Below are positions 84 to 44,194 of a stretch of DNA of 54,283 nt, in pieces. The position numbers were made by a program, and so were the translations under genes. Under the pieces are notes generated by a model. That model searched no databases and had not been told where the DNA came from. It saw only the letters and a program-made list of their open reading frames with translations. Positions within the stretch are counted from its first letter, which is position 1, and each line of letters begins with the position of its first letter. Source of the stretch: an uncultured Candidatus Saccharibacteria bacterium (GTDB taxonomy: Bacteria; Patescibacteriota; Minisyncoccia; Minisyncoccales; Minisyncoccaceae); NCBI GenBank assembly GCA_964586365.1, contig CAZPGI010000001.1, forward strand, positions 1 to 54,283. The letters run 5' to 3'.

Positions 84-130
84 ACTTGTTCTTTATTCAA
101 ATTAATTATTATCTTTAATCTATTCTAATT

Positions 131-1932: not shown

Positions 1933-1995
1933 TGTTCTCAGTATAGCTGGAGTCTTGAATAATTTCAAGAATTAGTGTATATATTTCATATATAT

Positions 1996-20294: not shown

Positions 20295-20764
20295 ACGAAA
20301 AAGAACTATTAGAAAAAATAGAGGAAATAATTAAGGAATTTTTTGAACGAGTTGGTTCAGAAGTAGAGATTAAAAAAATATCTTTAAGCCAAATTGACGA
20401 CCGAGAAGTTTTAACAGTTAATTTAAAAACTAAAGAAGCCAATATCTTTATTGGCAAGCAAGGGTTGGTTTTGTCTGACATTCAGTTGCTTTTGAGAAAG
20501 ATTCTTAAAAGAAAAACGAACGAAGAGCTTTTTTTAAATTTAGACATTGACGATTACAAAAAATACAAAGAAGACTATATCCGAGAGCTAGCTCAAAGTA
20601 CTGCTGATGAGGCAGTAAGCCAAAAAGAAAAAAAAGAATTGCCTTTGGCCGCAGCTTTTGATAGAAGAATAGTTTATTTAGAGCTGTCAAAAAGAACTGA
20701 TGTCAAAGTGGAAAGCCAAGGAGAAGGGGAAAACAGAAAAATTATTATTACGCCCTTAAATTAA
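20291..20764 (+). CDS. jag: Jag-like KH/R3H RNA-binding protein
   Basis: Position after yidC. KH-like IGKQGLVLSDIQ and a C-terminal R3H-like region. Confidence 0.6.
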   Translation: MNEKELLEKIEEIIKEFFERVGSEVEIKKISLSQIDDREVLTVNLKTKEANIFIGKQGLVLSDIQLLLRKILKRKTNEELFLNLDIDDYKKYKEDYIRELAQSTADEAVSQKEKKELPLAAAFDRRIVYLELSKRTDVKVESQGEGENRKIIITPLN

Positions 20765-22556: not shown

Positions 22557-23192
22557 TTAAGTAATTATTTCTGGGGGCAATTCAGGATAATATCCTAATT
22601 CAGCTTGTTTAGGGTGGTGAAGGCTCCATAAAAGCTCAATTAGTTCTTCTGTCCCCAAAGCTACTGATTTTAAACCACACCTTCTTAATCCAACAGAAAC
22701 ATATTCCATTCTTTGCCAGAGCTGGTATTTGCCTGTTTGGAAGCCTTGCTCGGTTAAAGAGCCGGCTGTTTTTTCCTTTCCTCCCCCGCCAGGCAAACTA
22801 GCCAATTCCACTAAAGGATAATAAGGGACAGCAATGTAGAAGTTTTTATTCATAATTGAGCCCCCAGCCACTAATTCTTCAATAAACCTTCTATAATCAG
22901 CGGTTTGGATTTTAAGCAATTCATTTTTTTGTTCGTCTTCCAGTTTTTTAATTTTTTCTATGTAGCCAGTGATATTGACTTTTCTAGAGTTGACGATTAT
23001 TTGACAGGAAAAATCCAAAGAATTAAGAAAATTTTGGAAGTTGAAGATAATAGCTTCTTGTTCTTCTCCTGACTTTAAAGCAAAGTTAATGGAAGATACC
23101 AAAAGAACGCCTTTTAAGGACTTATCTTTCATTATCATTACTCCTTCCCGGATTTGGTCAATTGGTATGAATTGTTGAGATGGTGTTGGCAT
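22557..23192 (-). CDS. VirB4 N-terminal-domain-like protein (separate ORF)
   Basis: IPIDQIREGVMIMKDKSLKGVLLVSSINFALKSGEEQEAIIFNFQNFLNSLDFSCQIIV matches the extreme N-terminal pattern of Gram-positive VirB4 proteins. It ends 2 nt before the next ORF, in a different frame. Confidence 0.55.
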   Translation of the reverse strand: MPTPSQQFIPIDQIREGVMIMKDKSLKGVLLVSSINFALKSGEEQEAIIFNFQNFLNSLDFSCQIIVNSRKVNITGYIEKIKKLEDEQKNELLKIQTADYRRFIEELVAGGSIMNKNFYIAVPYYPLVELASLPGGGGKEKTAGSLTEQGFQTGKYQLWQRMEYVSVGLRRCGLKSVALGTEELIELLWSLHHPKQAELGYYPELPPEIIT

Positions 23193-23611
23193 TATTTTTC
23201 AAAAAACATTTTTTTATTCAAAGCTTCAATTTTTCCGCTCGGTTTAAGTTTTAAGTTTGTTTTCTCTTCTTTTTCTTTCTCCGGCGCTTTCTTAGATGTT
23301 TTAACAGGAAGAAAAACCGGCGATTCTTTTCTGTCCCATTTGTAAACTTTGCTATTAGCAGTGTAATTGAGAAAGTTTTTGGAGACATCAACGATGCTTA
23401 ATCCTTCTACTTTCCAAAAGGCTAGAGCTAAAGCTAGCCCGAAAATAGTGCCGCAGACAATAATGTATAAAAAGAAATTACTTTTTCCTAAGCTGAAATA
23501 CAAGAAAAAACAAACTCCTAAAGCTAGACCAACATAAATACTTTGTTTGGTAGTAAAAGGACCAAGGATTTTAGGGTCATGTTCTATGAATTGAGGAATT
23601 TGAAATTGCAT
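23192..23611 (-). CDS. PrgI-family (VirB3-like) small membrane protein
   Basis: MQFQIPQFIEHDPKILGPFTTKQSIYVGLALG followed by two TM helices, which is the PrgI family pattern. Its stop overlaps the start of the next ORF by 1 nt. Confidence 0.6.
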   Translation of the reverse strand: MQFQIPQFIEHDPKILGPFTTKQSIYVGLALGVCFFLYFSLGKSNFFLYIIVCGTIFGLALALAFWKVEGLSIVDVSKNFLNYTANSKVYKWDRKESPVFLPVKTSKKAPEKEKEEKTNLKLKPSGKIEALNKKMFFEK

Positions 23612-24182: not shown

Positions 24183-25550
24183 ATGACAGAAAAGACAAAA
24201 AAGAATGTTGAGCAGAGCAAGAATGATGAAACAGGAGTCTTCATTAATGGACTGCTTCTTATTATCGGCCCTCTTGTGGCTGTAAGCATAGCGTACAGAC
24301 TATGGCCATGGATTCCGTGGATATCTTATATCCCAGCGTGGCCCTTCTATTTATGGACAGTTCTGTTCATTCCCCTTGTCCTCTACTTCTATTGGGCGAA
24401 AAATAATGTAATTGGTTATTTTATTGAAGAAGGATATGCAATTGTTTTCGCTTGGAGTGGCAAAGCATTCGCTGGCGCTGACCTACAATATGGCGATGCT
24501 TACTTTGATTCTAATTGGAACATAGTATTTCCTGGAGAAAAGCAAGAAGAAAAAGGTTGGGACATAATAAGGTGGATAAAAAAGCCGAAAAAGTTCTTTG
24601 GTATGGGACTATATGCTTGGCCATTTAAAAGAGTGTATAAGTACAAGATGACCTGGTCAAAGAGAGATGAAGGCGGAAATCGCGTCTCTAAAACAGAAGA
24701 GCTCTCCAGGGTTTTACTCAAGCCCTATGTCTACGATATTGCTTATCAGGGCATGGAAGATAAAGACCGTATGCCTTTGAACATTGAACTGGCGACAGAG
24801 ATTCAAGTTAGAAATCCGTATAAAGCCCTTTTTGGCATAGAGAGGTGGTATAGGGCTTTGTTAAACCTAGCCGAAGGAGAGATAAGAAGATATATTGGCC
24901 AGAATCTTTATTTAGACCTAGTTAGCCGTAAAGAGGCTGGAGAAAAAGGAATTGTTAAAACGGTTGACCAAGAAATTGTTGAAAGAATACGCACAGACCT
25001 TAATGTCTTTGAAGAAAAGTTTGGGGTGAAGGTAAATAGAATAAAATTAATGCAGATTTTTCCTTCCCGAAAAGAGGACATAGAGGCAACGCTTTTAGAG
25101 ATGAGAGCTAAGCGAGAAAGAGAGGCGATAGAGACCAAGGCTAAGGCAGAGGCCTATAGGGCTGGCCAGGAACTTGCCGGAATTGTTTTAGAGGCCCTCA
25201 AGGTCTCTACAGGAAAAAGCATTGAAGTTTTGCAAGAAGAATACAGAAAAGATCCAAAGCTTTTTGAGCAGACCTACGAAACTTCTCTAAAAGAAGCTTA
25301 TGATTTTGCCAAGAGGAGGCTTGGTTTTACTCAAAAAGGAAGATTTGAGTTCATAACTTCTTGCAAAGAAGGAGAAGGCAGTAGTGATACCACCAGCAGG
25401 CTAGCAGAAATTGTCGCTGGAGTTGAGATGGCTAGAAACCAACTTCAGCTTCAAGGAAAGTCAGGAGAAGAGAACAAGAAGAAAGATAAAAGAGAGGGAG
25501 CAAGAGAAACATTAGAGAAAATTAAAAAAGAGCTCGGACACAAAGAATAG
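24183..25550 (+). CDS. SPFH/band-7 (prohibitin-like) domain membrane protein
   Basis: N-terminal TM helices, then an SPFH-like core (LNIELATEIQVRNPYKALF..., EGEIRRYIG, FGVKVNRIKLMQI), then an A/E/K-rich coiled coil. Confidence 0.55.
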   Translation: MTEKTKKNVEQSKNDETGVFINGLLLIIGPLVAVSIAYRLWPWIPWISYIPAWPFYLWTVLFIPLVLYFYWAKNNVIGYFIEEGYAIVFAWSGKAFAGADLQYGDAYFDSNWNIVFPGEKQEEKGWDIIRWIKKPKKFFGMGLYAWPFKRVYKYKMTWSKRDEGGNRVSKTEELSRVLLKPYVYDIAYQGMEDKDRMPLNIELATEIQVRNPYKALFGIERWYRALLNLAEGEIRRYIGQNLYLDLVSRKEAGEKGIVKTVDQEIVERIRTDLNVFEEKFGVKVNRIKLMQIFPSRKEDIEATLLEMRAKREREAIETKAKAEAYRAGQELAGIVLEALKVSTGKSIEVLQEEYRKDPKLFEQTYETSLKEAYDFAKRRLGFTQKGRFEFITSCKEGEGSSDTTSRLAEIVAGVEMARNQLQLQGKSGEENKKKDKREGARETLEKIKKELGHKE

Positions 25551-25565: not shown

Positions 25566-26037
25566 ACATTAATTCTTGAGCTATTCCTTTTTGTTTTTCT
25601 TTTTGTTCCTCGGGAAAGTATTCTTCTTCCTCTTCAATGTTCTCTTCTGTCATATCTTTTATCACATTTTCATTGTCTGCAATCCTTTTAGCAATTTCTT
25701 CAATTATCTTTTGATTTATATTTAGCTTCCCCAAAGATAATTTTAATTCTTTTTCCAGTTCATCAAAAGTTATTTCTTTGTTTATAAGTTTTTCTACTAC
25801 CTTGGCAATTGCTATGGAAGCTGATATTTCTTCTAAAGGTTTTTTCAGGGCAAGATATTCTTTTATCTTTTTGCTTTTTAAAAATTTTACTACTCTTTTT
25901 TTTTCCGGCGTTGTGGCTGACTCTAACCACTCCTTCAAAAGAGGATCGTTCTCCACGAGATTCTTTTCTAGGTCATATTGGACCACTAATTCTTCTATGA
26001 AATTTAATGTTTCTGTTGATGGTTTAATCTTCTTCAT
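25564..26037 (-). CDS. Hypothetical acidic/coiled-coil protein
   Basis: Intact ORF that overlaps the upstream VirB6-like gene by 14 nt, suggesting co-translation. No family recognised. Confidence 0.4.
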   Translation of the reverse strand: MKKIKPSTETLNFIEELVVQYDLEKNLVENDPLLKEWLESATTPEKKRVVKFLKSKKIKEYLALKKPLEEISASIAIAKVVEKLINKEITFDELEKELKLSLGKLNINQKIIEEIAKRIADNENVIKDMTEENIEEEEEYFPEEQKEKQKGIAQELM

Positions 26038-28093
26038 GTATGGTTCTGTAAATAATATCTAATTTTTTGGCTAATTGTTCATTATTTTTTCGTGCCTCTA
26101 TTTTTTCTTGATCACTGCCTTCTTTCATTAATTTTTCCAGCCTGGTTAGTTCAGCGTCAGCCTGAGCTATCCATTTATTGTTATCTTTGAAGGATTGTTT
26201 TTGTTCGTTATTCATGTTTTTGAATAAGTTCTCAATTTGTTTTTGGTCAAGAGGTTTAACGTGTTTTTCAAAATCAAAATCTTTGAAAGCTGAAGCGTCT
26301 TGAAGGGTGTTTCTTTGTTCTTGGGTTCCTCTTTCATCAATGTATTTTAAATCTTTGTCAGATAAGTTTGCCCTTACAACAAGATTAGTTAGAGATATCG
26401 GCCTTATCTTCTCCTGTTTTTCTTTGGGACTCATGCCAGCCATAATGTCTGCTGTTGTTTTTTTACCGCCAGTTAATTCTGCAGCTTTGTCAGGCACGAA
26501 TTTAGCCAAGTCTTTAACGTTGAAACCATATTGTTCAGCTTCTTTAGTGTTTTTTGTTAAAGCTTCTATTTCTTTATCATTAAGTTCTTTTTTCTCCATC
26601 AATACCTGCGTGGCCTGGTATTTCTTTATCTTTCCTTCCGGGGTGTAGGCAACAGAATTGGCTATTTCTCTAACTTGGTCGGTCTTTAATTTTTCCATCG
26701 GTGCTTTGAATTCTTCAAATTGTTTTTTTCTCATAGTTTCTGCTGTGCCAGGTTTTTCAATGGTTAGAACTTCTTTGGCTCTAGTTGCCCATTGCTTGAC
26801 CTCTTCTTGTTCTAAAGGAGCCTTTACTACATTCATTAATCCGCCTACTGTTGTTATTTTTTCTTTTTCATTAACCTTGGCGTTTAAGGCTTCAGTAGCC
26901 CCAGTTTTTACCCCTCCATACAATCCTCCGGCTAAAGAATAAGCAGCCCTTGTCGCCCGCCCTTCGTCTTTCTTTAAATCAGCTTGAGTTTTAGCTCCTG
27001 TGTAAGCTCCTGTAACAAATCCTGTTCCAGCAGCAGCTAGTCTACCAGCAGCTTGTCTTCCGTAACCAGTTGCCATTTCTCCTATTTGGCCGCCAGAAGA
27101 AATAGTAATAAAAAAGCCGATGATAAGAAAAGCAAGGGGAATTATCAAAGTAAAAAGACTGCCTACTGCCCCTAAGCTTCCTGTTGGTGTGGAGACAAAT
27201 GAACCGCTGAACATTATTTTCTCTGATAAATAGATAAAAAAAGCAGCTGGAATGCCAATAACTACCCATTGTAAGAAAGTTTTCCACCAATCATCCCAAT
27301 AGGTGATACTTGGAAAAACAGCTTTAATATATTTACTTTGAGGAAGAACCTTGCTGGCAAAAGCAATCGGAGAAACTATAACTAAGAACCATAAAACAAT
27401 ATGTCTAGCTATGAATAAAAAAGCATAAAGAAAGTATATTACAGCAGAAAGAATAGCGAACAAAAGATAAGCTATTGGAACCACAGGATTACTCAAGGAA
27501 AAAGAATTAGAAATTAGCCCTTCAGTAATTGTTTCTGTTAAATTATTGCTAATATCTCCAGTTAAGAACAAGCCCATAATTTTATCAGCAAAATCAATAA
27601 TTATGCCGCAAAATACTGGAGTGAAATTAATTAAAATAGCTATAAGGACAAAGTTAATTAAAGCTTTTTTTGCTTTGGTTTCTTGATAGCCGACAATAAT
27701 ACTGATAGCAATGGCTACTAAGCCAAAAATTAAAACAACATTAGCCAAATCTCTAGTCGTTCCCCATCCGCTCTGAACAATTGGATTGTTTTGGATAACT
27801 GTGCCCATAAAGTCAGGACTAATCACCCAATTTAGAAGTGATTGGCCAATGCTTAATATGCCCTGAGCTATAGAAGAAGCAAGGAGGGTGAGGGCAGCTA
27901 TAATTACAGAACCAAGACTAAGAGATGATTCGTTGTTTGCTCCTTCTCCCCCTGCTCCCATGTCGCGCAGCATATCAGACAGTTTGCTAACTAGGTTAAT
28001 GTAGGTTATAACTTGGGCTTTTGCCAAAATAGGGATAAGAACAATTATTAAGCAAAAGGAAATAATAAGTATTTTTTTAGTTGAAGATTTCAT
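26024..28093 (-). CDS. Polytopic membrane protein, VirB6/TrbL-like by architecture and context
   Basis: Signal peptide, then an approximately 8-helix hydrophobic core, then a roughly 330-aa K/E-rich hydrophilic tail. This is the usual layout of T4SS channel subunits. The call is contextual. Confidence 0.45.
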   Translation of the reverse strand: MKSSTKKILIISFCLIIVLIPILAKAQVITYINLVSKLSDMLRDMGAGGEGANNESSLSLGSVIIAALTLLASSIAQGILSIGQSLLNWVISPDFMGTVIQNNPIVQSGWGTTRDLANVVLIFGLVAIAISIIVGYQETKAKKALINFVLIAILINFTPVFCGIIIDFADKIMGLFLTGDISNNLTETITEGLISNSFSLSNPVVPIAYLLFAILSAVIYFLYAFLFIARHIVLWFLVIVSPIAFASKVLPQSKYIKAVFPSITYWDDWWKTFLQWVVIGIPAAFFIYLSEKIMFSGSFVSTPTGSLGAVGSLFTLIIPLAFLIIGFFITISSGGQIGEMATGYGRQAAGRLAAAGTGFVTGAYTGAKTQADLKKDEGRATRAAYSLAGGLYGGVKTGATEALNAKVNEKEKITTVGGLMNVVKAPLEQEEVKQWATRAKEVLTIEKPGTAETMRKKQFEEFKAPMEKLKTDQVREIANSVAYTPEGKIKKYQATQVLMEKKELNDKEIEALTKNTKEAEQYGFNVKDLAKFVPDKAAELTGGKKTTADIMAGMSPKEKQEKIRPISLTNLVVRANLSDKDLKYIDERGTQEQRNTLQDASAFKDFDFEKHVKPLDQKQIENLFKNMNNEQKQSFKDNNKWIAQADAELTRLEKLMKEGSDQEKIEARKNNEQLAKKLDIIYRTIHEED

Positions 28094-28115
28094 AGTTTGC
28101 CCTTATTATTTTTTG

Positions 28116-28134
28116 TGGTATAATTATTATACCA
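28116..28134. promoter_or_regulatory. Palindromic pair of divergent extended -10 promoters
   Basis: tggtataat-t-attatacca is a perfect 9-bp inverted repeat. Each arm reads TGnTATAAT toward one of the two divergent operons (starts at 28093 and 28162). Confidence 0.5.
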
Positions 28135-28161: not shown

Positions 28162-28464
28162 ATGTCAAAGAGTCTTGACCTTAGTCCAGAAACAGTGCTT
28201 ATGCTTTCTTGGGCTGGATTGATAGATTTAATAGAAATAATTCTTCTTTGTTTTGCTTTAGATGATGTTGGTATTCTTGACCTTATCAGCACAATTACAA
28301 TCGGAGGCTGGATGTTTTTAAGAGAAGGGAAAACAGTTAATTTTAAAGCGCAAAGAAAAAGGCTGGTACGTTTTTTAGCAGGAATGGGGATAGAGATTGT
28401 CCCTTATCTTGGCGCTTTGCCCATGGTCACTGTTATTACTTATTTAACCTTAAAAGAAGATTAA
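28162..28464 (+). CDS. Small membrane protein (100 aa)
   Basis: Three hydrophobic segments. It ends 1 nt before the next gene. No family recognised. Confidence 0.45.
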   Translation: MSKSLDLSPETVLMLSWAGLIDLIEIILLCFALDDVGILDLISTITIGGWMFLREGKTVNFKAQRKRLVRFLAGMGIEIVPYLGALPMVTVITYLTLKED

Positions 28465-28465
28465 A

Positions 28466-31400
28466 ATGAATAAAAACAAAATTCTTTTTATTTTTCTCCT
28501 TTTCCTTATTCCTTTTTTGGCTTTAGCCCTAGAAACAGAGTATCCAGTCATAGGCGGAACCCAGCCCACTCAAAGTACTTCTCCAGCAGAGTTTATAAAA
28601 TACATCTTCAATGTAGTAATTATTGTCGGTATCATTGCCGCTGTTTTTGTGATGACCTTTCAAGGAGTTAATATTCTTTTAGCCAGAGGAGATGTAGCTT
28701 TAGTTTCTACTGCTAAAGAAAAGATTAAAAGCGTTTTTATCGGCTTGATTATCCTTTTAGGCTCTTATCTTATTCTTACTGCTATTAGCCCTGATTTAGC
28801 GGTAATAGACATTAAGCCATTGGAGACTATTCATAAAATAGTAAAAGGACCAGAGCCAGAAGAAGAGACCATTCCCCTTTCTGAATTTGAAGAAATTCCT
28901 TTAGGCACTATCTTAGAAAGCATCTTAGCCGCTAACTCGTCTGAAAGAATCTATAACGATGTTACTGAAGAACTTTGTTATGCTTACGACGAAAACGGAG
29001 ATACTATTGACCGTAATGGTGATAAAAAAATAGACGAGCAAGACCTGTTGAAAGGAGTGGATATGTATTATTGTTTGTCAGAGTTAAATAAAGCTTTAAT
29101 AAAAAAGATAAAAGATATTAATGGAGGCAATTATTTATGTAATACTCCATCAAAAACCGGACCAATTGAAGAAATGAAGGAAGCGATTTCCAGTGGTTGT
29201 AGCTGTCAGTCTTGCGATGTTTGGAAACCGAGATTCTATTGTCCTGGAGAGGAATGCTATCAATGTAAAACCTATAGTTGTGGCGAGTGCAGTACTTGTT
29301 GTAAGGACCATTGTTCTTGCTGCGGCAGGGCCTATTATTCTCCTGATGCAGGCTGCCAAGACCTTAATGATAAAAGCAGAGACCCTTGTGGAGCAACAAG
29401 AGATAAAATAGACTGTGCCAGAAATGAAATTAAGCTTAGGGTTAATGGTACGGGCTATAATGTCCCTGGAGCGACTGAAGATAACTGCGATTTTACGAAA
29501 TACTTTAAAGAAAATGAGTATAAGTTTTTAACTCTTACTATAGCTAAGCAAAGACTCGATTCTTTTAAAACATACTTCCAAAACCATTTAACTGATTTAG
29601 AAAAAGCAGAAACAATGATGAAGTCTCCTTATGGAGAAAGATTGTCTTTAGCTGAGTTTCAAGCTATTCAAGCTGGTGATGCTTATAAAAAAACCGTAGC
29701 CAATTCTTTTAAGAACACTAATAGTAGTTATTCTTACAATCCAGTCAAATACTGCCGAGAGTTTAATTGCACTGGTTACAAAAACGGAGACTCAAAGAAT
29801 CTTTGCGTGTCTGGGGAAAGAGTCAGTTTGACAGAGGCTTTAATGGAAAAGGAAAAATTGATAGATCCTTTATACGATAAATTACCGAAACTCATTGATA
29901 AAAGAATATGCAAGGTAGACAAGGAAAAGGACGTAGAAAGCTATTATTACGATGGGGACGGAGCTACTTTTTATTTTCAATCAGGATACAGCACTAGTCA
30001 ATCTGGCATTCAAGAAAAATGCGCCATTAATTCAAAGATTGAAAAAGAAATGATGAAGGGGCTGATTCCTGTTGGAGAAACAGTTGATGCCACAGAGAAG
30101 TTTGCTCAAGATGTTATTAACATATTAAGCCAGATATCAGCAGAAACCCAGAAAACAATTGAAAAAGCCATTGAATTAAGCGCTTTGCCAGAAAAATGCG
30201 ATTGTTCCTGGGGATGTTCTAATCATTCTGATTGCCGTTGTGTTCCTAGTTCAGAAAGCTGCACTTCTTGCTCTTGCAGTTCTTGTTTGGCTTGCCGTGC
30301 TAACTCTCAATCATTGTGTATCTGTTGTCAAGATTGTGAAGAAGTGGAAGTGATTGATGAAAATATTCCTAGCCCAGAAGATGACATGATTAAGAATTTT
30401 GGTTCTTGTCCATCTTGTCCAAGCATTGTTTCCACAGGCAATGCCAATGAATACTGGACCTATTGTCCTTGCAGCGGAACCTTGCTCATCCCTAATATTG
30501 CTTTAATTACTAATCCTAATTCTAGGTTTTGTTATTTAGGCGAAGACCTGGGTTCTTATTGTGCTATTCATTTTCAAGAAGCGAATTGCCAAGCAGAGTT
30601 TAAAAAACTACCTCGAGTTTGTATTGTTTCCACAATTAATGCTCCTAAATTTGTAAATTATACTATTGAAAGTTGCGAAACAGTTGTTCAAGAGCCGATT
30701 TCAGACGCTATTCTTTGCGGTGGCGGACAAAAAGCTTATTACACCCAAAAAAGCATTCTTAAGCTTAAACCCAAGGGAGAAATAGTTACTATTTGTGAAG
30801 GAGAGCTGCCTGTGGACCAAGAGTTGGTTAATGAAATTAATAAATATTGTAATACAACTTGTGCCCATGAACCAAACTGCCAGCCAGGAAGCTTTCATTG
30901 GGTAAGCGCTAACGAATTTGTCATGAGAGAAGTTTTTTGCAAAGGTCCTGGTTCTCCTAAGGATCCTCAAGGCCTTATTAAAAGAGACTCTGCCCCTTAT
31001 TACAGTTCTCTAAAGGTTGCTTTGCCCGTAGGATATGTGGTGGAAAGCGTTACGGCTATTCCTTTGAGCGATTCAAGGGTCCCTTCTTCTTATCGAAGCT
31101 CAATGGTTCCTGTTCAATATTATCATATTGGAACGTGTTCTACAGAATATACTGATGAAGGACCAATAAAACATTGCGTAGAGGCTGGGTATAATACCTA
31201 TCATTTTATTGATGATGGTTATGCTTTATTGTATAAAATCAGAAATACAAACAGAATAAAGAGAGGAGAAAGCGATAGTCAGGCTGAATATGTTTGTCCG
31301 GTTAATGATATAAAAGACAGGCAGTGTAGGATATTTAAATATAGCGATAGCGATGCTATTGATCCTAAATATCCAGAAAATATTAATACTGACTATAACT

Positions 31401-31858
31401 GCCGAGACGAAAACTCTTCTGGCGCTGGCTATCTTCAGAAAATAGAGCTTTTGAATAACAGGTTGGAAGGCTTGGTTCAAGGCAAGAATCTGAGGAGCGA
31501 TGATGTTAACCGCTGGACTCTTTTAGAAAAGTTATCTTTAATTAGAACTAAACTAGAGTCCTGTATCCAGGGCTATAGTTTTCCCAACAAAGGTGATTTA
31601 ACTAAACAGAGAATATTTTCCTGCCAAGAAGGAATTGAAGATATGATTTTACGCTCCTTAGTTATTCTGCCAGACTTTCCTTATCCCCCTTCTAAAACCT
31701 ATTGGAATTGCTATCCTTTTAATAGCAGTTCTTTAACTGACGAGCAGAAGATATCTTGCTATGCCAATAAAGACGCTGAGGGAACTGCAGCTAGTCCTAA
31801 ATGTCAAAGATTTATTAGCGGCTTATTAGACAATTATTATTGTTGTCAAGGAGAATAA
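28466..31858 (+). CDS. T4SS-pilin-domain (VirB2/TrbC-like) N-terminus fused to a ~950-aa cysteine-rich ectodomain
   Basis: Signal peptide, ALETEYP, TM1 (IIVGIIAAVFVMTF), an ARGD loop, AKEKIKS, then TM2 (FIGLIILLGSYLIL) give the pilin layout. After that come about 66 Cys (hand count), including dense CxxC/CC clusters. Confidence 0.7.
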   Translation: MNKNKILFIFLLFLIPFLALALETEYPVIGGTQPTQSTSPAEFIKYIFNVVIIVGIIAAVFVMTFQGVNILLARGDVALVSTAKEKIKSVFIGLIILLGSYLILTAISPDLAVIDIKPLETIHKIVKGPEPEEETIPLSEFEEIPLGTILESILAANSSERIYNDVTEELCYAYDENGDTIDRNGDKKIDEQDLLKGVDMYYCLSELNKALIKKIKDINGGNYLCNTPSKTGPIEEMKEAISSGCSCQSCDVWKPRFYCPGEECYQCKTYSCGECSTCCKDHCSCCGRAYYSPDAGCQDLNDKSRDPCGATRDKIDCARNEIKLRVNGTGYNVPGATEDNCDFTKYFKENEYKFLTLTIAKQRLDSFKTYFQNHLTDLEKAETMMKSPYGERLSLAEFQAIQAGDAYKKTVANSFKNTNSSYSYNPVKYCREFNCTGYKNGDSKNLCVSGERVSLTEALMEKEKLIDPLYDKLPKLIDKRICKVDKEKDVESYYYDGDGATFYFQSGYSTSQSGIQEKCAINSKIEKEMMKGLIPVGETVDATEKFAQDVINILSQISAETQKTIEKAIELSALPEKCDCSWGCSNHSDCRCVPSSESCTSCSCSSCLACRANSQSLCICCQDCEEVEVIDENIPSPEDDMIKNFGSCPSCPSIVSTGNANEYWTYCPCSGTLLIPNIALITNPNSRFCYLGEDLGSYCAIHFQEANCQAEFKKLPRVCIVSTINAPKFVNYTIESCETVVQEPISDAILCGGGQKAYYTQKSILKLKPKGEIVTICEGELPVDQELVNEINKYCNTTCAHEPNCQPGSFHWVSANEFVMREVFCKGPGSPKDPQGLIKRDSAPYYSSLKVALPVGYVVESVTAIPLSDSRVPSSYRSSMVPVQYYHIGTCSTEYTDEGPIKHCVEAGYNTYHFIDDGYALLYKIRNTNRIKRGESDSQAEYVCPVNDIKDRQCRIFKYSDSDAIDPKYPENINTDYNCRDENSSGAGYLQKIELLNNRLEGLVQGKNLRSDDVNRWTLLEKLSLIRTKLESCIQGYSFPNKGDLTKQRIFSCQEGIEDMILRSLVILPDFPYPPSKTYWNCYPFNSSSLTDEQKISCYANKDAEGTAASPKCQRFISGLLDNYYCCQGE

Positions 31859-31878: not shown

Positions 31879-33210
31879 ATGAATAAGAAAAAACTATTAC
31901 TTTCCCTTCTCGCTATTTCTCTTGTTTTGGTTTCTAATGCTTATGCCCTAGAAACTCAATATCCTGAGATCATGGGTAAGAGCATTACTGAAGAAACTAC
32001 ACCTGCCGGCTATGTTGTTTACTTTTTCTACTTAGCTATAGCCCTAGGAAGCGTTTTGGTTTTTATTGTTTTGGTTTTGGCTGGTGTTGACTTTATGACT
32101 GCTGGCGGAGAGCCGGCGAAGATAAGCGAAGCCAAGAAAAAAGTGACAAGCGCGGTTATTGGCTTAGTGGTTCTTTTAAGCTCTTTTCTCATTTTAAATA
32201 GCATTAACCCAGATTTATTAAATATAGAGCTGGAGCAATTAGAATGTCCTTCAGGTATAGGAATTGTAAAAAGAACTACTCTTGGAAAGATAGCCAATGA
32301 TTGTATAAGCTCAGATACGAAAGATATAGAGGGAGAGGTTCTTGAAACCAAAGGATGGAACTTTTCTGGCTGTTCTATTAAGGAAGTATATTTATGCAAT
32401 CAGCCAGATTTTAAAGGAACATGCATTAAGGTTTCTGATGAAAAGAGTCAAGATTATACTTGTCATCCTGATTATCAGTTTACTAGTGGTGTTAGTTTAA
32501 AAGGAGTTAAATCAATAAAATTCGTTTGGCGTTCTCCGGGATTGTATTTATATGATAGTATTGGAATGCAGGCGCAGGATATAACTAAAAACCCAGAATA
32601 TCTGGTTAGTAGTGTCAAAAATATGAACAGCTTAGGGTTTGACAATGCTGCTCAGTCCTCTCAATTTATTTGGCCGGCAACAGAAACAGCAAACGAAGAC
32701 GATACTTATTATGGCGCTGTTTTCTTTGATAGTATTAATTATTCAGGCAGATGCAGCCTAGAAATAATGAATAGAGAAGACCTTGGGGAAGCTAATTCTA
32801 TTGGCAGAAACACTTTGTCTTCAGTTATTCTTTTTACTCAAAATCAAGTATCTGAATCTAAGGACCTGGGAGACATTATTTTTTACAACAATATCGATTG
32901 CGGGCAGAGTACAGCCGAAGAAGTTAAAACCTGTAAATTGGACATAAATAATTTTGTAACTGCGGGAAAAATTAAAAATGCCTGTCCTAATTTTAAAGAC
33001 GGAGATTATGTTCTTTCTTTTAGCATTAGTGGGCCGGGAGGATTGGTTTTAAAAGGCAACCAGAATAATCTTTGCGAGTATTTTGATGTTGGCAGCTTGA
33101 CTTCAGGAAACTGTTATTCAAGCTTAAAAACAAAATCAACAATTTATGTTCAGGGACCGAGCGGGGTTAAGCCAGAATCATACATAATTTTTCCAGTAGG
33201 CAATAAATAA
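31879..33210 (+). CDS. T4SS-pilin-domain N-terminus fused to a beta-gamma-crystallin-like ectodomain (paralogue 1)
   Basis: ALETQYP and two TM helices (AGGEPAKISEAKKKV between them). The C-terminal part carries Greek-key-like FFDSINYSGRC...NTLSSVILF and IIFYNNIDCG. ATG at 31879. Confidence 0.7.
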   Translation: MNKKKLLLSLLAISLVLVSNAYALETQYPEIMGKSITEETTPAGYVVYFFYLAIALGSVLVFIVLVLAGVDFMTAGGEPAKISEAKKKVTSAVIGLVVLLSSFLILNSINPDLLNIELEQLECPSGIGIVKRTTLGKIANDCISSDTKDIEGEVLETKGWNFSGCSIKEVYLCNQPDFKGTCIKVSDEKSQDYTCHPDYQFTSGVSLKGVKSIKFVWRSPGLYLYDSIGMQAQDITKNPEYLVSSVKNMNSLGFDNAAQSSQFIWPATETANEDDTYYGAVFFDSINYSGRCSLEIMNREDLGEANSIGRNTLSSVILFTQNQVSESKDLGDIIFYNNIDCGQSTAEEVKTCKLDINNFVTAGKIKNACPNFKDGDYVLSFSISGPGGLVLKGNQNNLCEYFDVGSLTSGNCYSSLKTKSTIYVQGPSGVKPESYIIFPVGNK

Positions 33211-33212
33211 AT

Positions 33213-34439
33213 ATGAAACAAGCAAACATTCTTGCCATAATCCTATTTTTATCAGTACCCCTTTTTGCCTTAGCCGATTACCCAACTATTAATGGAAGAA
33301 CCATAACCAGTGATTCTACTTTTTCTGATTATGTTGTTTATTATTTTTCTTTGGCTTTAATGATTGGAATTATAGCAGCAGTAGTTATTTTGATAGCTGC
33401 GGGTATTAAGTTTCTGTTTTCTCAAGGAGATACTTCCAAAAGAAGTGACGCAAAAAGAATGATTACTGGAGCTTTTATTGGTTTGATAGTCCTTTTTGGT
33501 TCATATGCTCTTTTAAACTCTTTGAACCCTTCAGCTACCGAGCCAATTGTTGAGCCAGAGCCAGTTGCTTTTGACGGCATTTATTTAATTAAAGAGAATG
33601 GAAGCAAGGTTTTGGTTTCTCAGGATATTCCAGAGACTAGTCAAAACTTTACTGGCATTGAATGGATTTCCAGCGCAGAAGACTTGCCTGCAATTTATAT
33701 TTATGCTGAAAAATACTTTAAAGGCGTGCCAAAAGAAATAACAAACGGAACTTCGGTTTCTATTCCTAAGGGTTCATCAATTTCTTTTTTATGGAAAACA
33801 GCCGGTATTTATCTTTATGACAAGACCAATTATCAACTGGGAAACAAAAGCGCTCCCCTACCCATTAAGTTTAGTCAAGCTTTTTTGGGAGGAAGTTCTT
33901 TTGACAATACAACGCAATCAATTAAAATTAATCAGCCTAGCGATGGTTCAACCTTAGGCGCTATTCTTTTTTCTGAAGATGATTATCGCGGCACTTGTTC
34001 TTGGATTTTAGGAGAAATTTCTGATTTAAGTCAGTCAAGAGGTGAAGAAAATAATCCACCTATAGGTAATAATAATTTATCTTCAATTATTGTTTTAAAT
34101 TTGGCTTCTGGCTCGCCTACAGTTACTTTTTACAATCGAGCTGATTGTCAATATATCCAAAAAGATCCAAGAAACAAAAAATGTGATGTTTCTACAATTA
34201 ATAAAACAAGCACCTTCAAAGAATCCTGTCCTGATTTTACAGGAGACGTTTTATCTTTTTCTTTAAATGAAAATACAGGCGTTCTTTTGAAAACAGAAAA
34301 TGGCCAGTGTCAATTTTTCAAAAGACAAAATAGTCCTCAAGAATGTCAAAGTTTAATTAAATATGGCTATGTTTACAATCCAGACATTAAGAAAGCCATT
34401 AAACCCTATTCTTTTACTATATTTTCTTTGACAAAATAG
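33213..34439 (+). CDS. T4SS-pilin-domain N-terminus fused to a beta-gamma-crystallin-like ectodomain (paralogue 2)
   Basis: LADYP and two TM helices (SQGDTSKRSDAKRMI between them). Greek-key-like YAEKYFKG...SSISF, LFSEDDYRGTC...NNNLSSIIVL and VTFYNRADC. Confidence 0.7.
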   Translation: MKQANILAIILFLSVPLFALADYPTINGRTITSDSTFSDYVVYYFSLALMIGIIAAVVILIAAGIKFLFSQGDTSKRSDAKRMITGAFIGLIVLFGSYALLNSLNPSATEPIVEPEPVAFDGIYLIKENGSKVLVSQDIPETSQNFTGIEWISSAEDLPAIYIYAEKYFKGVPKEITNGTSVSIPKGSSISFLWKTAGIYLYDKTNYQLGNKSAPLPIKFSQAFLGGSSFDNTTQSIKINQPSDGSTLGAILFSEDDYRGTCSWILGEISDLSQSRGEENNPPIGNNNLSSIIVLNLASGSPTVTFYNRADCQYIQKDPRNKKCDVSTINKTSTFKESCPDFTGDVLSFSLNENTGVLLKTENGQCQFFKRQNSPQECQSLIKYGYVYNPDIKKAIKPYSFTIFSLTK

Positions 34440-36736: not shown

Positions 36737-38149
36737 TTAAATTCCCGACTCTGTTTCTTCGTCATTGCTTTTTACTTCCAGGTCGTCCAAATTGAAATTA
36801 GCTGCCTCTTCTTCAAGCTTGTCTATTTTCGCATCAGCTTCAGCAATAGCATTTTTGATTTCTTTGGCCCGATTGGATATCGCTTGATAATTTTCTCTTA
36901 ATTCTGCTCTTTGTTTTTCGGCTTTTGCTAAAATGTCTTCAGCTTTCCATCTTTCTTCTTCAACGGCCCTTCTTTTGTTTTCTAATTCTCTTCTTTCTTC
37001 TTCTATCCTTCTAATCTCTTCGGGATTATCTATGGCCATTCCTCCTTTTTTCTCTAACAACTTTATTTCTTCTTCAACGTTTTTTTCTTTTAATAAAATA
37101 TCAGTAAGGGTTTCTTCTAATTGATCTTTTTCTCTAGTGTTGTCTATCATTTTTTCTTTGATTTCAAAAGCTTCTTGGCCTACTTTTTCTAATTCAAGAA
37201 ATAGCTTCTGACGAGATTCTTTCAGGTTTATTCTTTCTCTGTCTCTTCTCAGCATCTCTAGCTCCAAATTAAGCTGTTTTTCTCTAGCAAGAACTTTTTC
37301 AAAAGCCAAGGTACACTCTTTAAGTTGTAATCTTAAAGATTTGATATCGTCTTCTTTTTTATTCTGTTCTATTTCAATCATGTTTCTTTCGTCCTCAATC
37401 TTCCACCTTTCTTTTTCTAGTCGTCTTTTTTCTTCTGGGTCTCTAGCAATAGCCTCTTTGTCTTCAATATGTTTTTTTATTTCTTCTACTCTTTTTTTTC
37501 TTTCAACGATAAGTTCTAGTTTCTTTTTGGCTCTTTCAATTTCTCTTTCAATCTCTTGCTTTCTTTCTTCAAAAGGCATTTTTTCTTCCAAAACTTTTCT
37601 CAGATTTTCTTCTATCTCAAAAGTAAGGTCAGTAATTTTTCTCAATTTTTCTTCGGCATTTTCTTCTGTTTCCCTTTCTTTTATCTCTTCTGTTGTTATT
37701 TCTTCTACTTCTGGTTCTGAGGGCGTGAACGGTTGTGTTTCTTCAAGAGCAGGTTGTTCTGGAGGAGTTTGTTCCTCAAGCTTTTCTTCCAGCTTTATTT
37801 CTTCCGGCAAAACTTCTTCCTTGATTTCAGGCTGCTCTGCAATCTGAGTTTCTATTTTTGTCTCTTCCAGAGGTTTGTTTTCTTCAGTAATATGGGTTTC
37901 TATTCCAGCCGCAGGAGCATTTTCTTCAACTGGCAATGGTTCTTCTTTAATTTCCGTGTCTTTTAATTCTGTTTCTTTAGGAGAAAGTTCTTCTACTGGC
38001 GGCGGCGGAGGGATAAGTTCTTCTGTTTCTTCCTCAGCCCAGATTTCTTCTGGCTCTTCAAAATTTCCTTGCGCAGCAGCAGCTAAGTCTTTTTTCAAAG
38101 TTCGGATTTTTTCGCGATTTAATTTAAAAACTTTGTTTTCTTCACTCAT
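36737..38149 (-). CDS. Glu/Lys-rich coiled-coil protein with a Pro/Glu-rich N-terminal region
   Basis: 470-aa ORF of low complexity. It overlaps the pnp end by 8 nt. No family recognised. Confidence 0.5.
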   Translation of the reverse strand: MSEENKVFKLNREKIRTLKKDLAAAAQGNFEEPEEIWAEEETEELIPPPPPVEELSPKETELKDTEIKEEPLPVEENAPAAGIETHITEENKPLEETKIETQIAEQPEIKEEVLPEEIKLEEKLEEQTPPEQPALEETQPFTPSEPEVEEITTEEIKERETEENAEEKLRKITDLTFEIEENLRKVLEEKMPFEERKQEIEREIERAKKKLELIVERKKRVEEIKKHIEDKEAIARDPEEKRRLEKERWKIEDERNMIEIEQNKKEDDIKSLRLQLKECTLAFEKVLAREKQLNLELEMLRRDRERINLKESRQKLFLELEKVGQEAFEIKEKMIDNTREKDQLEETLTDILLKEKNVEEEIKLLEKKGGMAIDNPEEIRRIEEERRELENKRRAVEEERWKAEDILAKAEKQRAELRENYQAISNRAKEIKNAIAEADAKIDKLEEEAANFNLDDLEVKSNDEETESGI

Positions 38150-40605: not shown

Positions 40606-40998
40606 TTAAGGAACTTGCTGGAAAAAGTAAAGAGGCCATTCCATTTGTCCTTTAGTAATAAAGGCTACGAATTCGTAAACAATAAGCCAAGCAGCATAAA
40701 TTAATATCACGCCAATAATACCATAAGTTAATATCTTTTTTCCTTTTTCTACTTTGCCAGGGTCGCCGCCAGCGCTCATTATGGTTATCCCGCCAAAAGC
40801 AAAGATAAGAGCAGCAATAGGAGGAATTAAAGTAAAAAGCAGGAATTTAATAACATTGTTTATTAAGACAAATAAATCGCTGAAAGTGCATGGTTCTTGG
40901 TCTTTTCCTCCGCAAGGAACTAATCCTTGGCCTAAAACTGGAAGAGCAAAAAGCAAAAAAAAGAAGAAAAAGGCAAGATATTGTTTGGTTTTTGGCAT
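40606..40998 (-). CDS. Stand-alone T4SS pilin-like protein (VirB2/TrbC-type, CPR style)
   Basis: Signal peptide, LVPCGG..PCTFSDLFVLINNVIKFLL, TM1, the loop SAGGDPGKVEKGKKIL, then TM2. This is the same layout as the N-termini of the three fusion proteins. Confidence 0.65.
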   Translation of the reverse strand: MPKTKQYLAFFFFFLLFALPVLGQGLVPCGGKDQEPCTFSDLFVLINNVIKFLLFTLIPPIAALIFAFGGITIMSAGGDPGKVEKGKKILTYGIIGVILIYAAWLIVYEFVAFITKGQMEWPLYFFQQVP

Positions 40999-41112: not shown

Positions 41113-41781
41113 TTATTGTTTTTTAAACAGTTTTATTCTGAAAGGAGGAACTGTATCTTGGTCAAAGATAAGGCGGTTTTCAATCAATTCTTTTTTATTG
41201 TTTGATTTTATTATTTCTTCAATCGGGCTTAATCTTTTAATAAAAATAGGGACCAGAGAAAGAATAATAAGCCAGCCAATTGGCTCAAAGTAATTTAATC
41301 CTCCTTTAAAAGTAAAGAAAATGCCGAAGATTAGAGAAAGGATAGTGCCAACAGAAGCTGTCCAAATGAGAGTAAAAACAATGGTAGGGATAAGCAAAAT
41401 GAATAAAGTAGTAGGAGAAAAAGCAAAGATTGCGCCAATTAAAGTTCCCAATCCTCTCCCGCCATTAAACTTAAGGAAAATTGACCAATTGTGGCCAATT
41501 ATAGCCATAAAGCCAGCAAGAACTTGAATTGCTATTGGCAAGTTGTATTTTTGAGCCAAAAAAACTACTAAAAAGCCTTTACCAACATCAAGAAAAAATG
41601 TCAAGATGCCTGGCCACGCTCCTACATTTTTAACTACGTTTGAACTAGAACTTTTTCTCCAGCCAATTTCTAAAATGTTTTTGCCAGAAGCGAGACGGGA
41701 AATGATATAGGCAAAAGGAATGGAACCAAGGAGATAAGAAAAGATTAAGTAAAGAAAATAAAAAAAGTATTGATTAATCAT
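41113..41781 (-). CDS. PlsY-like acyl-phosphate:G3P acyltransferase paralogue (divergent)
   Basis: LLGSIPFAYIISR and GHNWSIFLKFNGGRGLGT are conserved. The GSxNxGxTN motif is degenerate (SSSSNVVKNVG). Confidence 0.55.
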   Translation of the reverse strand: MINQYFFYFLYLIFSYLLGSIPFAYIISRLASGKNILEIGWRKSSSSNVVKNVGAWPGILTFFLDVGKGFLVVFLAQKYNLPIAIQVLAGFMAIIGHNWSIFLKFNGGRGLGTLIGAIFAFSPTTLFILLIPTIVFTLIWTASVGTILSLIFGIFFTFKGGLNYFEPIGWLIILSLVPIFIKRLSPIEEIIKSNNKKELIENRLIFDQDTVPPFRIKLFKKQ

Positions 41782-42433
41782 TTAAATAAGTTTTGTTTTT
41801 AATGTTTTTAATCTGTTCAGCTAGCCTATCGCGGTGAGCCAAAAGAATTAATGGCGTGGCTGCAAGGGCGGGATAAAAGATTAATATATTATAGGTATAA
41901 AGCCAAAAAAGAGCAAATACTTCGCCAGCCAATCTTCCTGCCACTTGGTCAGAAACAGCATGTTTTAAAAACTTTTTGTTTAACTTTCTTCCCATTAAGA
42001 TTTCAAACAAAACCATAAAGCAGAAAATTAAAGCTATCCAGCCGAAGAATGCTTTCCAGTCAAAATAAAGAAGAATACCCATTAAGCTGGCTGCTCCCCT
42101 ACCTCCTTTAAACTTAAGGAAAAGAGAGTGGTTGTGGCCTAAAACAACAAAGAAAGCAGTTAAAGCCACGGATAAAGAATTGTTGATTAAAGATTGGGCT
42201 AGATAAACAGACAAAACTGCTTTGCCTCCATCTAAGAGGAAGACAAGAAGAAAAGCAATAAGGCCTATTGATTTTCCTTTTTCCTTGCCAGCTACTCTTA
42301 AAGTATTTAAAGCGCCGATATTTTTTGAGCCAGCTTGACGCAAATCTTCTTTAAAAAAAAGCTTGTTAATGATGAGTCCAAAAGGAATGGAACCAAGGAG
42401 ATAAGAAGCTAGAATGATAATAAAGTATTTCAT
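41774..42433 (-). CDS. PlsY-like acyltransferase paralogue
   Basis: LLGSIPFGLII, GSKNIGALN and GHNHSLFLKFKGGRGAAS. Confidence 0.65.
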   Translation of the reverse strand: MKYFIIILASYLLGSIPFGLIINKLFFKEDLRQAGSKNIGALNTLRVAGKEKGKSIGLIAFLLVFLLDGGKAVLSVYLAQSLINNSLSVALTAFFVVLGHNHSLFLKFKGGRGAASLMGILLYFDWKAFFGWIALIFCFMVLFEILMGRKLNKKFLKHAVSDQVAGRLAGEVFALFWLYTYNILIFYPALAATPLILLAHRDRLAEQIKNIKNKTYLND

Positions 42434-43311
42434 ATTATTTGTTCTTGTAATAAAGCAATAAGAATTGTGCCTGGGCCGACGTGAGCACCGATAACAAAAC
42501 CAGACACATTGATAAATTCTATTTTTACCTCTGGAAGGTTTTCCTGAACCATTTTTTCCAAACGTTTAGCTTCTTCTAGGTTGTCAGCATGGCTGATAGC
42601 AGCGCGATATTGGCCAGGATTCTTTTTAACCAAGTTTTTAACTTCTTTAAACAGGGCAGTGGCCGTATCTTTGGCTTGCATTTTAAAATTAGCTGGTTTA
42701 GCTTCGCCATCTTTAACTTTTAAAATTGGCCTCATGCCTAGTTCTTGCATTTTTTCCATAATTCTAGCCACGGCACTACTTATTCTTCCACCAGCCTCTA
42801 GCCATTTCGGGCTTTCCAACATGCCAAAAAGATGAACCTTAGAAGGCAAGCTTTCTAAAGAATGAAAAATGTTTTCAGTGCTCTCCCCTTTTTCTATTAA
42901 TTCTGCCGTCCTAATAACTAAAAGAGCTTCGCCAACATCAACATTAAGAGTGTCTAAAATAAATATTCTTTTTTGAGTTTCTTCATCAAATAGTTTTTTG
43001 GCTTGAATGGCAGAATTAAAAGCCCCAGATAATTTTGAGCTTAAGGTAAGACAAAGAACATCTTTGTCTTGAGCTAAAAGGTTGTCGTAAGCTTTTTTGA
43101 AAGTACCTACTGCTGGCTGAGAGGTTTTGGGAGTGGTTTTAATGCCTTGTTCTTTGGCATCTTTCATCTTTTTATAAATATTATCTTTGGAAATATCTTT
43201 TTGCTCGGGCCAGTCAACTATAAAAGGAACGATTTCAGTAATTCCATATTTTTGAATCAACTCTGGAGGCAAGGCTGAGCTGTCTCCAATAATTAAACCT
43301 GGTTTTTTCAT
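42430..43311 (-). CDS. DegV/FakB-family fatty-acid-binding protein
   Basis: IGDSSALPPE, PKTSQP and LSSKLSGAFNSA motifs, about 290 aa. Confidence 0.85.
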   Translation of the reverse strand: MKKPGLIIGDSSALPPELIQKYGITEIVPFIVDWPEQKDISKDNIYKKMKDAKEQGIKTTPKTSQPAVGTFKKAYDNLLAQDKDVLCLTLSSKLSGAFNSAIQAKKLFDEETQKRIFILDTLNVDVGEALLVIRTAELIEKGESTENIFHSLESLPSKVHLFGMLESPKWLEAGGRISSAVARIMEKMQELGMRPILKVKDGEAKPANFKMQAKDTATALFKEVKNLVKKNPGQYRAAISHADNLEEAKRLEKMVQENLPEVKIEFINVSGFVIGAHVGPGTILIALLQEQII

Positions 43312-43329
43312 ATATGTTTATTTATTATT

Positions 43330-44193: not shown

Positions 44194-44194
44194 A

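Follow-up and report, generated by a model that had tools for sequence, protein, structure and literature searches.

The stretch of DNA analysed here (hereafter the window) comprises 54,283 nucleotides (nt) of contig CAZPGI010000001.1 from an uncultured Candidatus Saccharibacteria bacterium, with a G+C content of ~35%; the names of homologues point to Patescibacteria, and among these to Candidatus Paceibacterota. Among the genes of a predicted type IV secretion system (T4SS) it contains two adjacent genes, A and B, whose products join an N-terminal T4SS pilin module to a large ectodomain that, by profiles and predicted folds, belongs to the beta-gamma-crystallins (Table 1). The stop of A and the start of B are 2 nt apart, and the 3' end of B overlaps by 34 nt with the convergent rsmA. 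For gene A we have used the ATG as start (the list of open reading frames, ORFs, began at an upstream TTG), orthologues being called at 441-444 amino acids (aa). The two proteins align from end to end with 31% identity (E 3e-49) and are full-length paralogues, as proposed in an earlier model-made reading of the same letters (the original prediction), which had described tandem paralogues with a common C-terminal ectodomain. The ectodomain peptides that it had paired, SIKFVWRSPGLYLYD with SISFLWKTAGIYLYD and IIFYNNIDC with VTFYNRADC, are all present. The pilin layout that it saw shared with the preceding 1130-aa gene (C) is also there: A and B have in common with C only the N-terminal ~105 aa, at 38-43% identity (E 2e-21 and 5e-23), and the three stretches ALETEYP, ALETQYP and LADYP are found after the signal peptides.

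The N-terminal module of both proteins is a pilin of the Pfam family T4SS_pilin (PF18895) by family hidden Markov model (HMM), topology and locus. The T4SS_pilin HMM, proposed earlier as a check on these domains, gave 31.2 bits for A (aa 49-107) and 28.5 bits for B (aa 45-95), both above the gathering score of 26.6. The classical TrbC/VirB2 HMM (PF04956, cut-off 27.9 bits) was not reached (17.0 bits, E 0.0069 for B; 10.4 bits, E 0.78 for A), and NCBIfam yielded a sub-threshold match only, to a pilin-like family of Mycoplasma integrative and conjugative elements. Scanned against Pfam and NCBIfam, A and B matched pilin families alone, with no VirB5 or PrgB family among them. At 30% identity the pilin module of B is related to a short 130-aa pilin encoded elsewhere in the window; a search of this module against the PDB gave no meaningful match, that is, no solved relative of the anchor.

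Hydropathy plots of both proteins show three hydrophobic regions, with 4-5 lysines or arginines in the loop that separates the second from the third; the N-terminus of the mature protein is acidic. The signal-peptide cleavage sites were placed from AxA-like motifs. After the signal-peptide helix, the AlphaFold2 models have helices at residues 42-74 and 79-109 of A and 37-68 and 74-104 of B. Following the positive-inside rule, the basic loop and the acidic N-terminus therefore predict an N-out/loop-in/C-out topology, in which everything after residue ~110 would be extracellular. Small pilins made of the hairpin only have ~70-130 aa when mature, and A (443 aa) and B (408 aa) do not fit this pattern: a proline/acidic linker connects the hairpin to an added, folded C-terminal ectodomain of ~300 aa.

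Greek-key motifs of the crystallin type had been pointed out in this region, namely YAEKYFKG...SSISF and FSEDDYRG...NNNLSS in B and FDSINYSG...NTLSS in A, and all of them are present. The signature [YFW]xxxx[YFW]xG has two occurrences in the ectodomain of B (P = 0.02 in shuffles) and one in that of A (P = 0.25), counts that are near chance, and the case for a crystallin therefore rests on profiles and predicted folds rather than on motifs. A profile built from 16 ectodomains (A2) retrieved 13 weak matches from the PDB sequences (E 0.05-0.5), of which 12 are beta-gamma-crystallins, including Protein S (the top match), betaB2, gammaB and AIM1; the single B ectodomain, searched against the PDB with phmmer, gave only a chance match to a hydrolase (E 2.3). 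The AlphaFold2 models of A and B have a mean pLDDT (predicted local distance difference test) of 81 overall and of ~90 in the ectodomain, and when compared with the PDB by Foldseek their top 50 matches were all beta-gamma-crystallins. Model B aligned with two-domain gamma-crystallins over ~212 columns (E 2.7e-8, target-normalised template modelling score, TM, 0.72), and with the single-domain microbial structures 3hzb (Flavollin), 1hdf (Spherulin 3a) and 1nps (Protein S N-domain) at TM 0.74-0.81; model A reached E 2.6e-6 and TM up to 0.70. Against viral structures, model B had one marginal unnamed match (E 2e-4) and no phage connection was found.

A third line is transitive homology. Out of 1.84 billion representative proteins, 469 matched the A2 profile at E <= 1e-3, and the profile reaches pilin-less multi-repeat proteins (P0091 at E 6.6e-30, P0102, P0109, P0155 and others, to 1e-14) that are themselves strong members of Pfam Crystall (E 1e-33 to 1e-106). 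The ectodomain is also internally repetitive: in hhalign comparisons based on a 132-sequence family alignment, its first segment (D1) matched the second (D2) with 95.8% probability (E 6.5e-9), and D2 matched the third (D3) with 96.5% (E 7e-10, 93 of 104 columns). HMMs of D1, D2 and D3 each recognise Crystall repeat proteins, within a set of targets pre-selected by the whole-ectodomain profile. Because the PDB profile, the predicted fold, the transitive homology and the internal repeats converge, the ectodomain can be described as crystallin-type, and on the models it is composed of three homologous beta-gamma-crystallin domains, D1-D2-D3. The earlier claim of a Greek-key ectodomain is thereby upheld by AlphaFold2/Foldseek and by the family profile, while the Pfam Crystall HMM, the other means suggested for checking it, matched neither A nor B; the motifs, correctly seen as crystallin-type, had been undercounted, with three domains (six Greek keys) in place of scattered motifs. 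Neither of the two results that were to count against the original prediction came about. Some weight must be given to the opposite side. Even at E <= 10, Pfam detected no family at all in either ectodomain, Crystall (PF00030) and its clan included, and one of 16 members of the ectodomain family matched Crystall (E 0.053). The structures of A and B are predictions from shallow alignments (23-25 sequences), and domain boundaries, disulfide pairs and the geometry of the Ca2+ sites are provisional.

Table 1. Features of the window, in order of position. dN/dS is the ratio of nonsynonymous to synonymous substitution rates (Nei-Gojobori), calculated against the relatives L003 and L006 only, with dS saturated for orthologues of ~70% identity.
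Feature	Positions	Strand	Description	dN/dS
dnaN + dnaA	17564-19003			
VirB4-like ATPase	20761-22554	-	597-aa P-loop ATPase	
VirB4 N-terminal/TrsD/TraC-like ORF	22557-23192	-	211 aa	
PrgI/VirB3-like gene	23192-23611	-	T4SS core	
Band_7-type gene	24183-25550	+	455 aa, inside the T4SS locus	
trbL/VirB6-like gene	26024-28093	-	689-aa polytopic membrane protein, divergent from the operon	0.12-0.14
Promoter-like site	28097-28124	+	TTGCCC-16 nt-TATAAT, TG extension; 10/12 matches; in the 68-nt divergent gap	
Small transmembrane gene (tm100)	28162-28464	+	First operon gene, 100-aa membrane protein	0.02-0.14
Gene C	28466-31858	+	1130 aa; pilin-type N-terminus and ~1016-aa ectodomain with 66 Cys	0.07-0.09
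Gene A	31879-33210	+	443 aa from ATG, 12 Cys; pilin/beta-gamma-crystallin fusion	0.11
A pilin module, aa 1-113	31879-32217	+	Putative signal peptide ~aa 1-23 (...NAYA/LETQYP) and VirB2-like two-helix hairpin, basic loop	
A D1, aa 125-218	32251-32532	+	Crystallin-type, 6 extra Cys; local D1 HMM E 1.8e-18	0.24-0.30
A D2, aa 219-325	32533-32853	+	Beta-gamma-crystallin; FDSINYSG, degenerate DNAAQS and RNTLSS; D2 HMM E 7.6e-27	
A D3, aa 326-443	32854-33207	+	Cys-rich divergent crystallin-type; local D3 HMM E 2e-29	
Gene B	33213-34439	+	408 aa, 6 Cys; pilin/beta-gamma-crystallin fusion	0.09-0.10
B pilin module, aa 1-108	33213-33536	+	Putative signal peptide ~aa 1-21 (...FALA/DYP) and VirB2-like two-helix hairpin	
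B D1, aa 121-195	33573-33797	+	Short crystallin-type, YAEKYFKG...SSISF; pLDDT ~90	
B D2, aa 196-299	33798-34109	+	Best-conserved, canonical beta-gamma-crystallin domain	
B NNNLSS, aa 286-291	34068-34085	+	Sole canonical N/D-N/D-x-x-S/T-S motif in A and B	
B D3, aa 300-408	34110-34436	+	Divergent crystallin-type, 5 conserved Cys: C312, C324, C339, C366, C378	
rsmA			Convergent with gene B	0.08-0.10
Glu/Lys-rich protein gene	36737-38149	-	470 aa, between dksA and pnp	
Short T4SS pilin	40606-40998	-	130 aa, PF18895 48.7 bits; ~6 kb from the array, just past pnp	
Two tandem plsY genes	41113-42433	-	G3P_acyltransf	
ORFs after plsY	42430-45970			

Within the ectodomain the three domains have diverged to different degrees. 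In D2 of B, the first Greek key corresponds to GIYLYDKTNY...FDNTTQSIKI and the second to ILFSEDDYRG...IGNNNLSSIIV. The hairpin signature is found in the second Greek keys of B D1 (YAEKYFKG), B D2 (FSEDDYRG) and A D2 (FDSINYSG); the hairpin of the first Greek key of D2 has, in B, one extra residue (YDKTNYQLG), and in D3 the aromatic/glycine signature is lost, with D/N-C in its place. D1 is missing in B-type relatives of 340-370 aa. Ser236, Ser291 and Ser348 are each kept in 125-132 of the 132 family sequences.

Microbial beta-gamma-crystallins of the Ca2+-binding type have two N/D-N/D-x-x-S/T-S motifs per domain (PMC3551895). The NNNLSS of B, singled out in the original prediction as such a motif, is indeed canonical; its partner in the same domain, DNTTQS, has a glutamine at liganding position 5, and D2 of A has RNTLSS and DNAAQS, neither of them canonical, a degeneration that speaks against a Ca2+-stabilised module. 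No motif of this kind was found in D1 or D3. Among the 132 family members, position 5 of motif 1 is a lysine in 43 and a glutamine in 38 (together 81) and a serine in 13, and motif 2 has N/D at position 2 in 91 and S-S in 108-132. To judge from these residues, B-type D2 may plausibly bind Ca2+ at one site, and binding in other parts of the ectodomains is doubtful.

The cysteine counts given earlier, 12 in A and 6 in B, are exact. The modal pattern of the family is one cysteine in D2 and five in D3, and the six additional ones of A all fall within residues 123-195, a span made up of linker and D1. In 23 sequences C324 and C339 are both missing, a joint loss that implies a disulfide pair between them. 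C262 and C312 are not co-lost, so that covariation does not confirm a bridge between D2 and D3, at which the odd cysteine counts hint by parity.

For the conservation of this arrangement we have used eight distinct relatives (L001, L003-L006, L010-L012). Another four arrays (L002, L007-L009) repeat some of these, L007-L009, which come from GTDB genomes (narrow alignment A4, three close relatives), being repeats of L006, L004 and L001 with identical HMM scores. The order trbL-like gene, small transmembrane gene, large pilin fusion, A-type gene (pilin + D1-D2-D3), B-type gene (pilin + D2-D3, with or without D1) and rsmA is kept in L001 and L003-L006 (67-94% identity), and also in L010 and L012, where the B-type ectodomains are ~38% identical; the domain content of each gene was confirmed by local HMMs. 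The L011 sequence (1-3209) starts inside the array and has three tandem crystallin-type genes, of which the first is truncated at the contig end, and then rsmA; the number of crystallin paralogues is therefore not always two.

The array had been described as a diversifying family of adhesin or tip proteins, and the first part of this description is not supported. The dN/dS of its genes (0.07-0.11) is that of neighbouring housekeeping genes, and the genes form three fixed orthologous groups in conserved synteny. The fastest part is D1 of A, and the pilin hairpin has values of 0.03-0.12; diversifying selection was rejected at both gene and domain resolution, with dN/dS ~0.1, like rsmA. The distinct subunits C, A and B form an old trio, fixed across a clade and under purifying selection.

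The family is widespread. The pilin module is present at the N-terminus of 152 of the 181 family proteins collected, most of them of 400-470 aa, and in at least 120 of the best 150 clusters (50% identity) from the 469 profile matches. Named members belong to Paceibacterota or Parcubacteria and are annotated merely as 'pilin' or 'hypothetical protein'; relatives in the family co-match Pfam Inhibitor_I36, of the same clan as Crystall. There are variants with additional cargo: one protein from outside the window, P0117 (972 aa, Candidatus Paceibacterota), combines the pilin anchor with a crystallin-like region (~aa 145-392) and a papain-family Peptidase_C1 (aa 449-672). This suggests that the pilin hairpin may serve as a general display anchor for extracellular cargo.

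A and B are the last two genes of an operon with the order tm100-C-A-B and gaps of 1, 20 and 2 nt, at whose junctions no terminator-like site was found. The site upstream of tm100 is the best promoter-like sequence in the region and a weak candidate for the operon promoter, such sites being as many in shuffled sequences. The 100-aa product of tm100 had no match in the family scans and has counterparts at the same position in the relatives (99-116 aa). Gene C scored 19.7 bits with PF18895, below the 26.6 cut-off, and 83.8 bits with the local pilin HMM; it is the first large array gene in all relatives (822-1179 aa). In Pfam, NCBIfam and the PDB nothing matched its ectodomain, which lacks a crystallin domain and contains CxxC-rich runs such as CSCQSCDVW...CGECSTCCKDHCSCCG.

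Upstream of the operon the order is dnaN and dnaA, yidC, jag, VirB4-like, PrgI/VirB3, Band_7 and TrbL-like, and downstream rsmA, a LysM-M23 peptidase, dksA, pnp and the short pilin. The 689-aa TrbL-like protein has no Pfam match in the window, while its orthologues in L005 and L012 match TrbL_3 (PF19590). Because dnaA, yidC, VirB4, PrgI and TrbL_3 match the published locus (PMC12102498), we assign the region to the oriC-proximal Patescibacteria T4SS with VirB2 arrays, an identification made from gene content. VirB4 is seemingly split, the 211-aa ORF matching only the VirB4/TrsD/TraC N-terminal region, and the same split is seen in L003 and L010. The position of the short pilin is conserved in the relatives, and we consider it the candidate major subunit.

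Arrays of VirB2-like pilins in Patescibacteria have been described in Southlakia epibionticum, SEML1_0014-0019 (PMC12102498, Quinonero-Coronel et al., 2025; PMC10633639, Wang et al., 2023). The common points are many: a PF18895 N-terminal module, virB4, prgI and a virB6-like gene near dnaA, tandem divergent pilin genes (the 31% identity of A and B fits the mean of 25% reported within the array) and an extra short pilin, which lies beside rpsO in Southlakia (SEML1_0024/0025) and here near pnp, beside rpsO in the relatives. In L001, L004, L010 and L012 a 267-nt rpsO stands between pnp and the short pilin, and the window has a gap of matching size (~360 nt) at that place. SEML1_0024 was scored as non-essential. 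The difference lies in what follows the hairpin. The four array pilins of Southlakia with listed coordinates are short helical hairpins (~125-185 aa) and have no extra domains listed, whereas A and B have ~300 aa of folded ectodomain and C ~1000 aa more. In the annotation tables of Southlakia, 'crystallin' occurs only as Hsp20/alpha-crystallin, and a review of T4SSs speaks of six structurally conserved VirB2-like pilins in Patescibacteria (PMC12857230). In the literature on Patescibacteria (candidate phyla radiation), VirB2 and T4SS we have found no description of a crystallin domain, or of an ectodomain, on these pilins. The view that pilins with folded ectodomains are undescribed agrees with this, as no published account of a crystallin-VirB2/T4SS fusion was found. 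The pilin-crystallin fusion is real, widespread and unannotated, and we know of no publication describing it; it is not a new category of system.

The ectodomains resemble the microbial beta-gamma-crystallins (Protein S, Spherulin 3a, Flavollin 3hzb, vibrillin, Clostrillin, M-crystallin) in the predicted double Greek-key fold and, for part of the Greek keys, the hairpin and the conserved serine, and also in the single canonical Ca2+ motif (in B), the extracellular or envelope context and the tandem domains (PMC3551895). They differ in remaining below the Pfam Crystall threshold, in the K/Q at the liganding position of the first Greek key, in the Cys-rich D3 without signatures and in being joined covalently to the pilin anchor of a T4SS, a link that we have not found reported for any member.

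What such proteins do at the cell surface can be approached from their architecture and their neighbours. The reading that we favour, with moderate confidence, is that A and B are Sec-exported, pilin-anchored surface proteins of the T4SS acting as minor or tip adhesive subunits. They would be exported via Sec and their signal peptide cleaved, after which the hairpin would be held in the membrane as a VirB2 pilin is, leaving the crystallin module on the outside. The VirB6/VirB4 platform would recruit them into a pilus or stalk built mainly of the short 130-aa pilin, in which A, B (and C) would be low-copy minor or tip subunits. The rigid crystallin modules, stabilised by disulfides and probably, in D2 of B, by Ca2+, would project outward and contact the host cell envelope, and A and B (and C) would supply the adhesin function held by VirB5 or PrgB in other T4SSs. 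Specialised low-copy subunits are suggested by the three distinct large orthologous groups kept adjacent. No adhesins such as PrgB have been detected in Patescibacteria (PMC12102498), and VirB5, the usual pilus-tip protein, nucleates on VirB6 and is then borne at the tip of the pilus (PMC12857230); A and B could plausibly be the missing adhesin of this system. More tentatively, the distal end of a pilus or stalk built by the essential T4SS of Paceibacterota could be a fixed hetero-oligomeric complex of C, A and B replacing VirB5/PrgB, with the crystallin modules, stabilised by Ca2+ and disulfides, recognising the host and setting the host range of these epibionts, an extension that we find possible and rather unlikely. 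If true, it would be a T4SS tip adhesin built directly from VirB2-type pilins, undescribed so far.

The analogy with VirB5 (Gram-negative) and PrgB (Gram-positive) would concern only the proposed role, that of a T4SS-encoded, surface-exposed protein in contact with the target cell: VirB5 is helical and soluble, PrgB is anchored to the wall in the LPXTG manner, whereas A and B are integral and pilin-like, with no relation to either in sequence or fold. Comparable in organisation are the variable VirB2/VirB5 arrays of Bartonella Trw and Anaplasma, with tandem divergent pilin paralogues, a T4SS without coupling protein or relaxase and a proposed role in host binding. Those arrays are of small pilins, whose variation is believed to serve host range or the evasion of immunity, unlike the fixed orthologous trio under purifying selection found here.

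Several considerations go against a tip adhesin. A 300-aa globular C-terminal load is, to our knowledge, unprecedented for VirB2-type pilins, and helical packing may not accommodate it. The ectodomains of A and B have no known ligand, and purifying selection with strict orthology is unlike the variable adhesin arrays of Bartonella Trw. Besides, no PF18895 protein has been shown to polymerise, nor A or B to be in a filament, and a pilus has yet to be demonstrated for a T4SS of Patescibacteria (PMC12857230).

The last of these points also favours the main rival, in which A and B stay in the membrane, the hairpin being just a two-helix anchor and the crystallin modules parts of the envelope or of the inter-cell junction (spacers, or wall-binding elements around the T4SS channel). 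We take this possibility seriously and regard it as fairly unlikely. A load of 300 aa would be large for a pilus subunit, and the same anchor bears other cargo, such as the Cys-rich ectodomain of C and the papain-family protease of P0117. Protein S, the top match among PDB sequences, is a Ca2+-dependent spore-coat assembly protein, which would also suit an envelope role. The strict linkage to virB4, prgI and trbL and the presence of a separate short pilin argue against this rival, however, and the hairpin is conserved at the level of the pilin family (PF18895 above cut-off, low dN/dS) and is not merely hydrophobic.

It is improbable that A and/or B are major pilins forming a thick filament with crystallin domains on every subunit. 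A C-terminal module could point outward if both pilin termini were on the outer surface, where the 2016 work of Costa and co-workers reportedly places them in solved conjugative pili. A large type IVa pilin is reported from Myxococcus (PMC11046646). The short 130-aa pilin, on the other hand, scores far higher with PF18895 and has been kept in all the related genomes, the side-by-side presence of three distinct large orthologous groups points to specialised low-copy subunits, and steric crowding would be likely. Very improbable, in our opinion, is a role of the modules as effectors similar to protease inhibitors or killer toxins, presented to the host envelope or released onto it. The crystallin fold is common to Inhibitor_I36/SMPI and to the killer toxins of yeast and Streptomyces, the match of family relatives to Inhibitor_I36 points in the same direction, D3 is rich in potential disulfides like SMPI and WmKT, and in P0117 the module is coupled with a protease of the papain family. 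Neither A nor B matches Inhibitor_I36 itself, however, and no cleavage or release signal follows the anchor. As for the idea that the Greek-key likeness is a chance match of short motifs in an unrelated beta-rich fold, the non-significant signature count in A and the failure of Pfam Crystall with A and B would agree with it, but fold, profile and transitive homology concur at three independent levels and effectively refute it.

A large part of the diversity of uncultivated bacteria belongs to the Patescibacteria, which live attached to the cells of a host. In Southlakia, their one genetically tractable member, the T4SS with its pilin array is essential for epibiotic growth (PMC10633639). Folded ectodomains anchored by pilins provide concrete, expressible candidates for the surface with which this T4SS contacts the host. 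They also extend the architecture of VirB2 pilins to a hairpin bearing large extracellular cargo. The beta-gamma-crystallin domain has for a long time been investigated as a module of Ca2+-dependent stability, few of its functions in microbes being known, and is here assigned to a defined machine of the envelope in which its role is open to test.

Some other genes of the region deserve mention. Inside the T4SS locus, the 455-aa protein has no Pfam match in the window and orthologues with Band_7 (SPFH); its identity to them is 32-54%, against 70-75% for rsmA, a much faster divergence. The extremely Glu/Lys-rich protein, without Pfam match and likely a coiled coil, keeps its position in the relatives (456-546 aa). 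Beyond the short pilin, the relatives have two DegV genes and a Dak2/FakA-like gene after plsY, and the ORFs found there in the window match them by size and strand; these paired lipid-handling genes could relate to the scavenging of host fatty acids.

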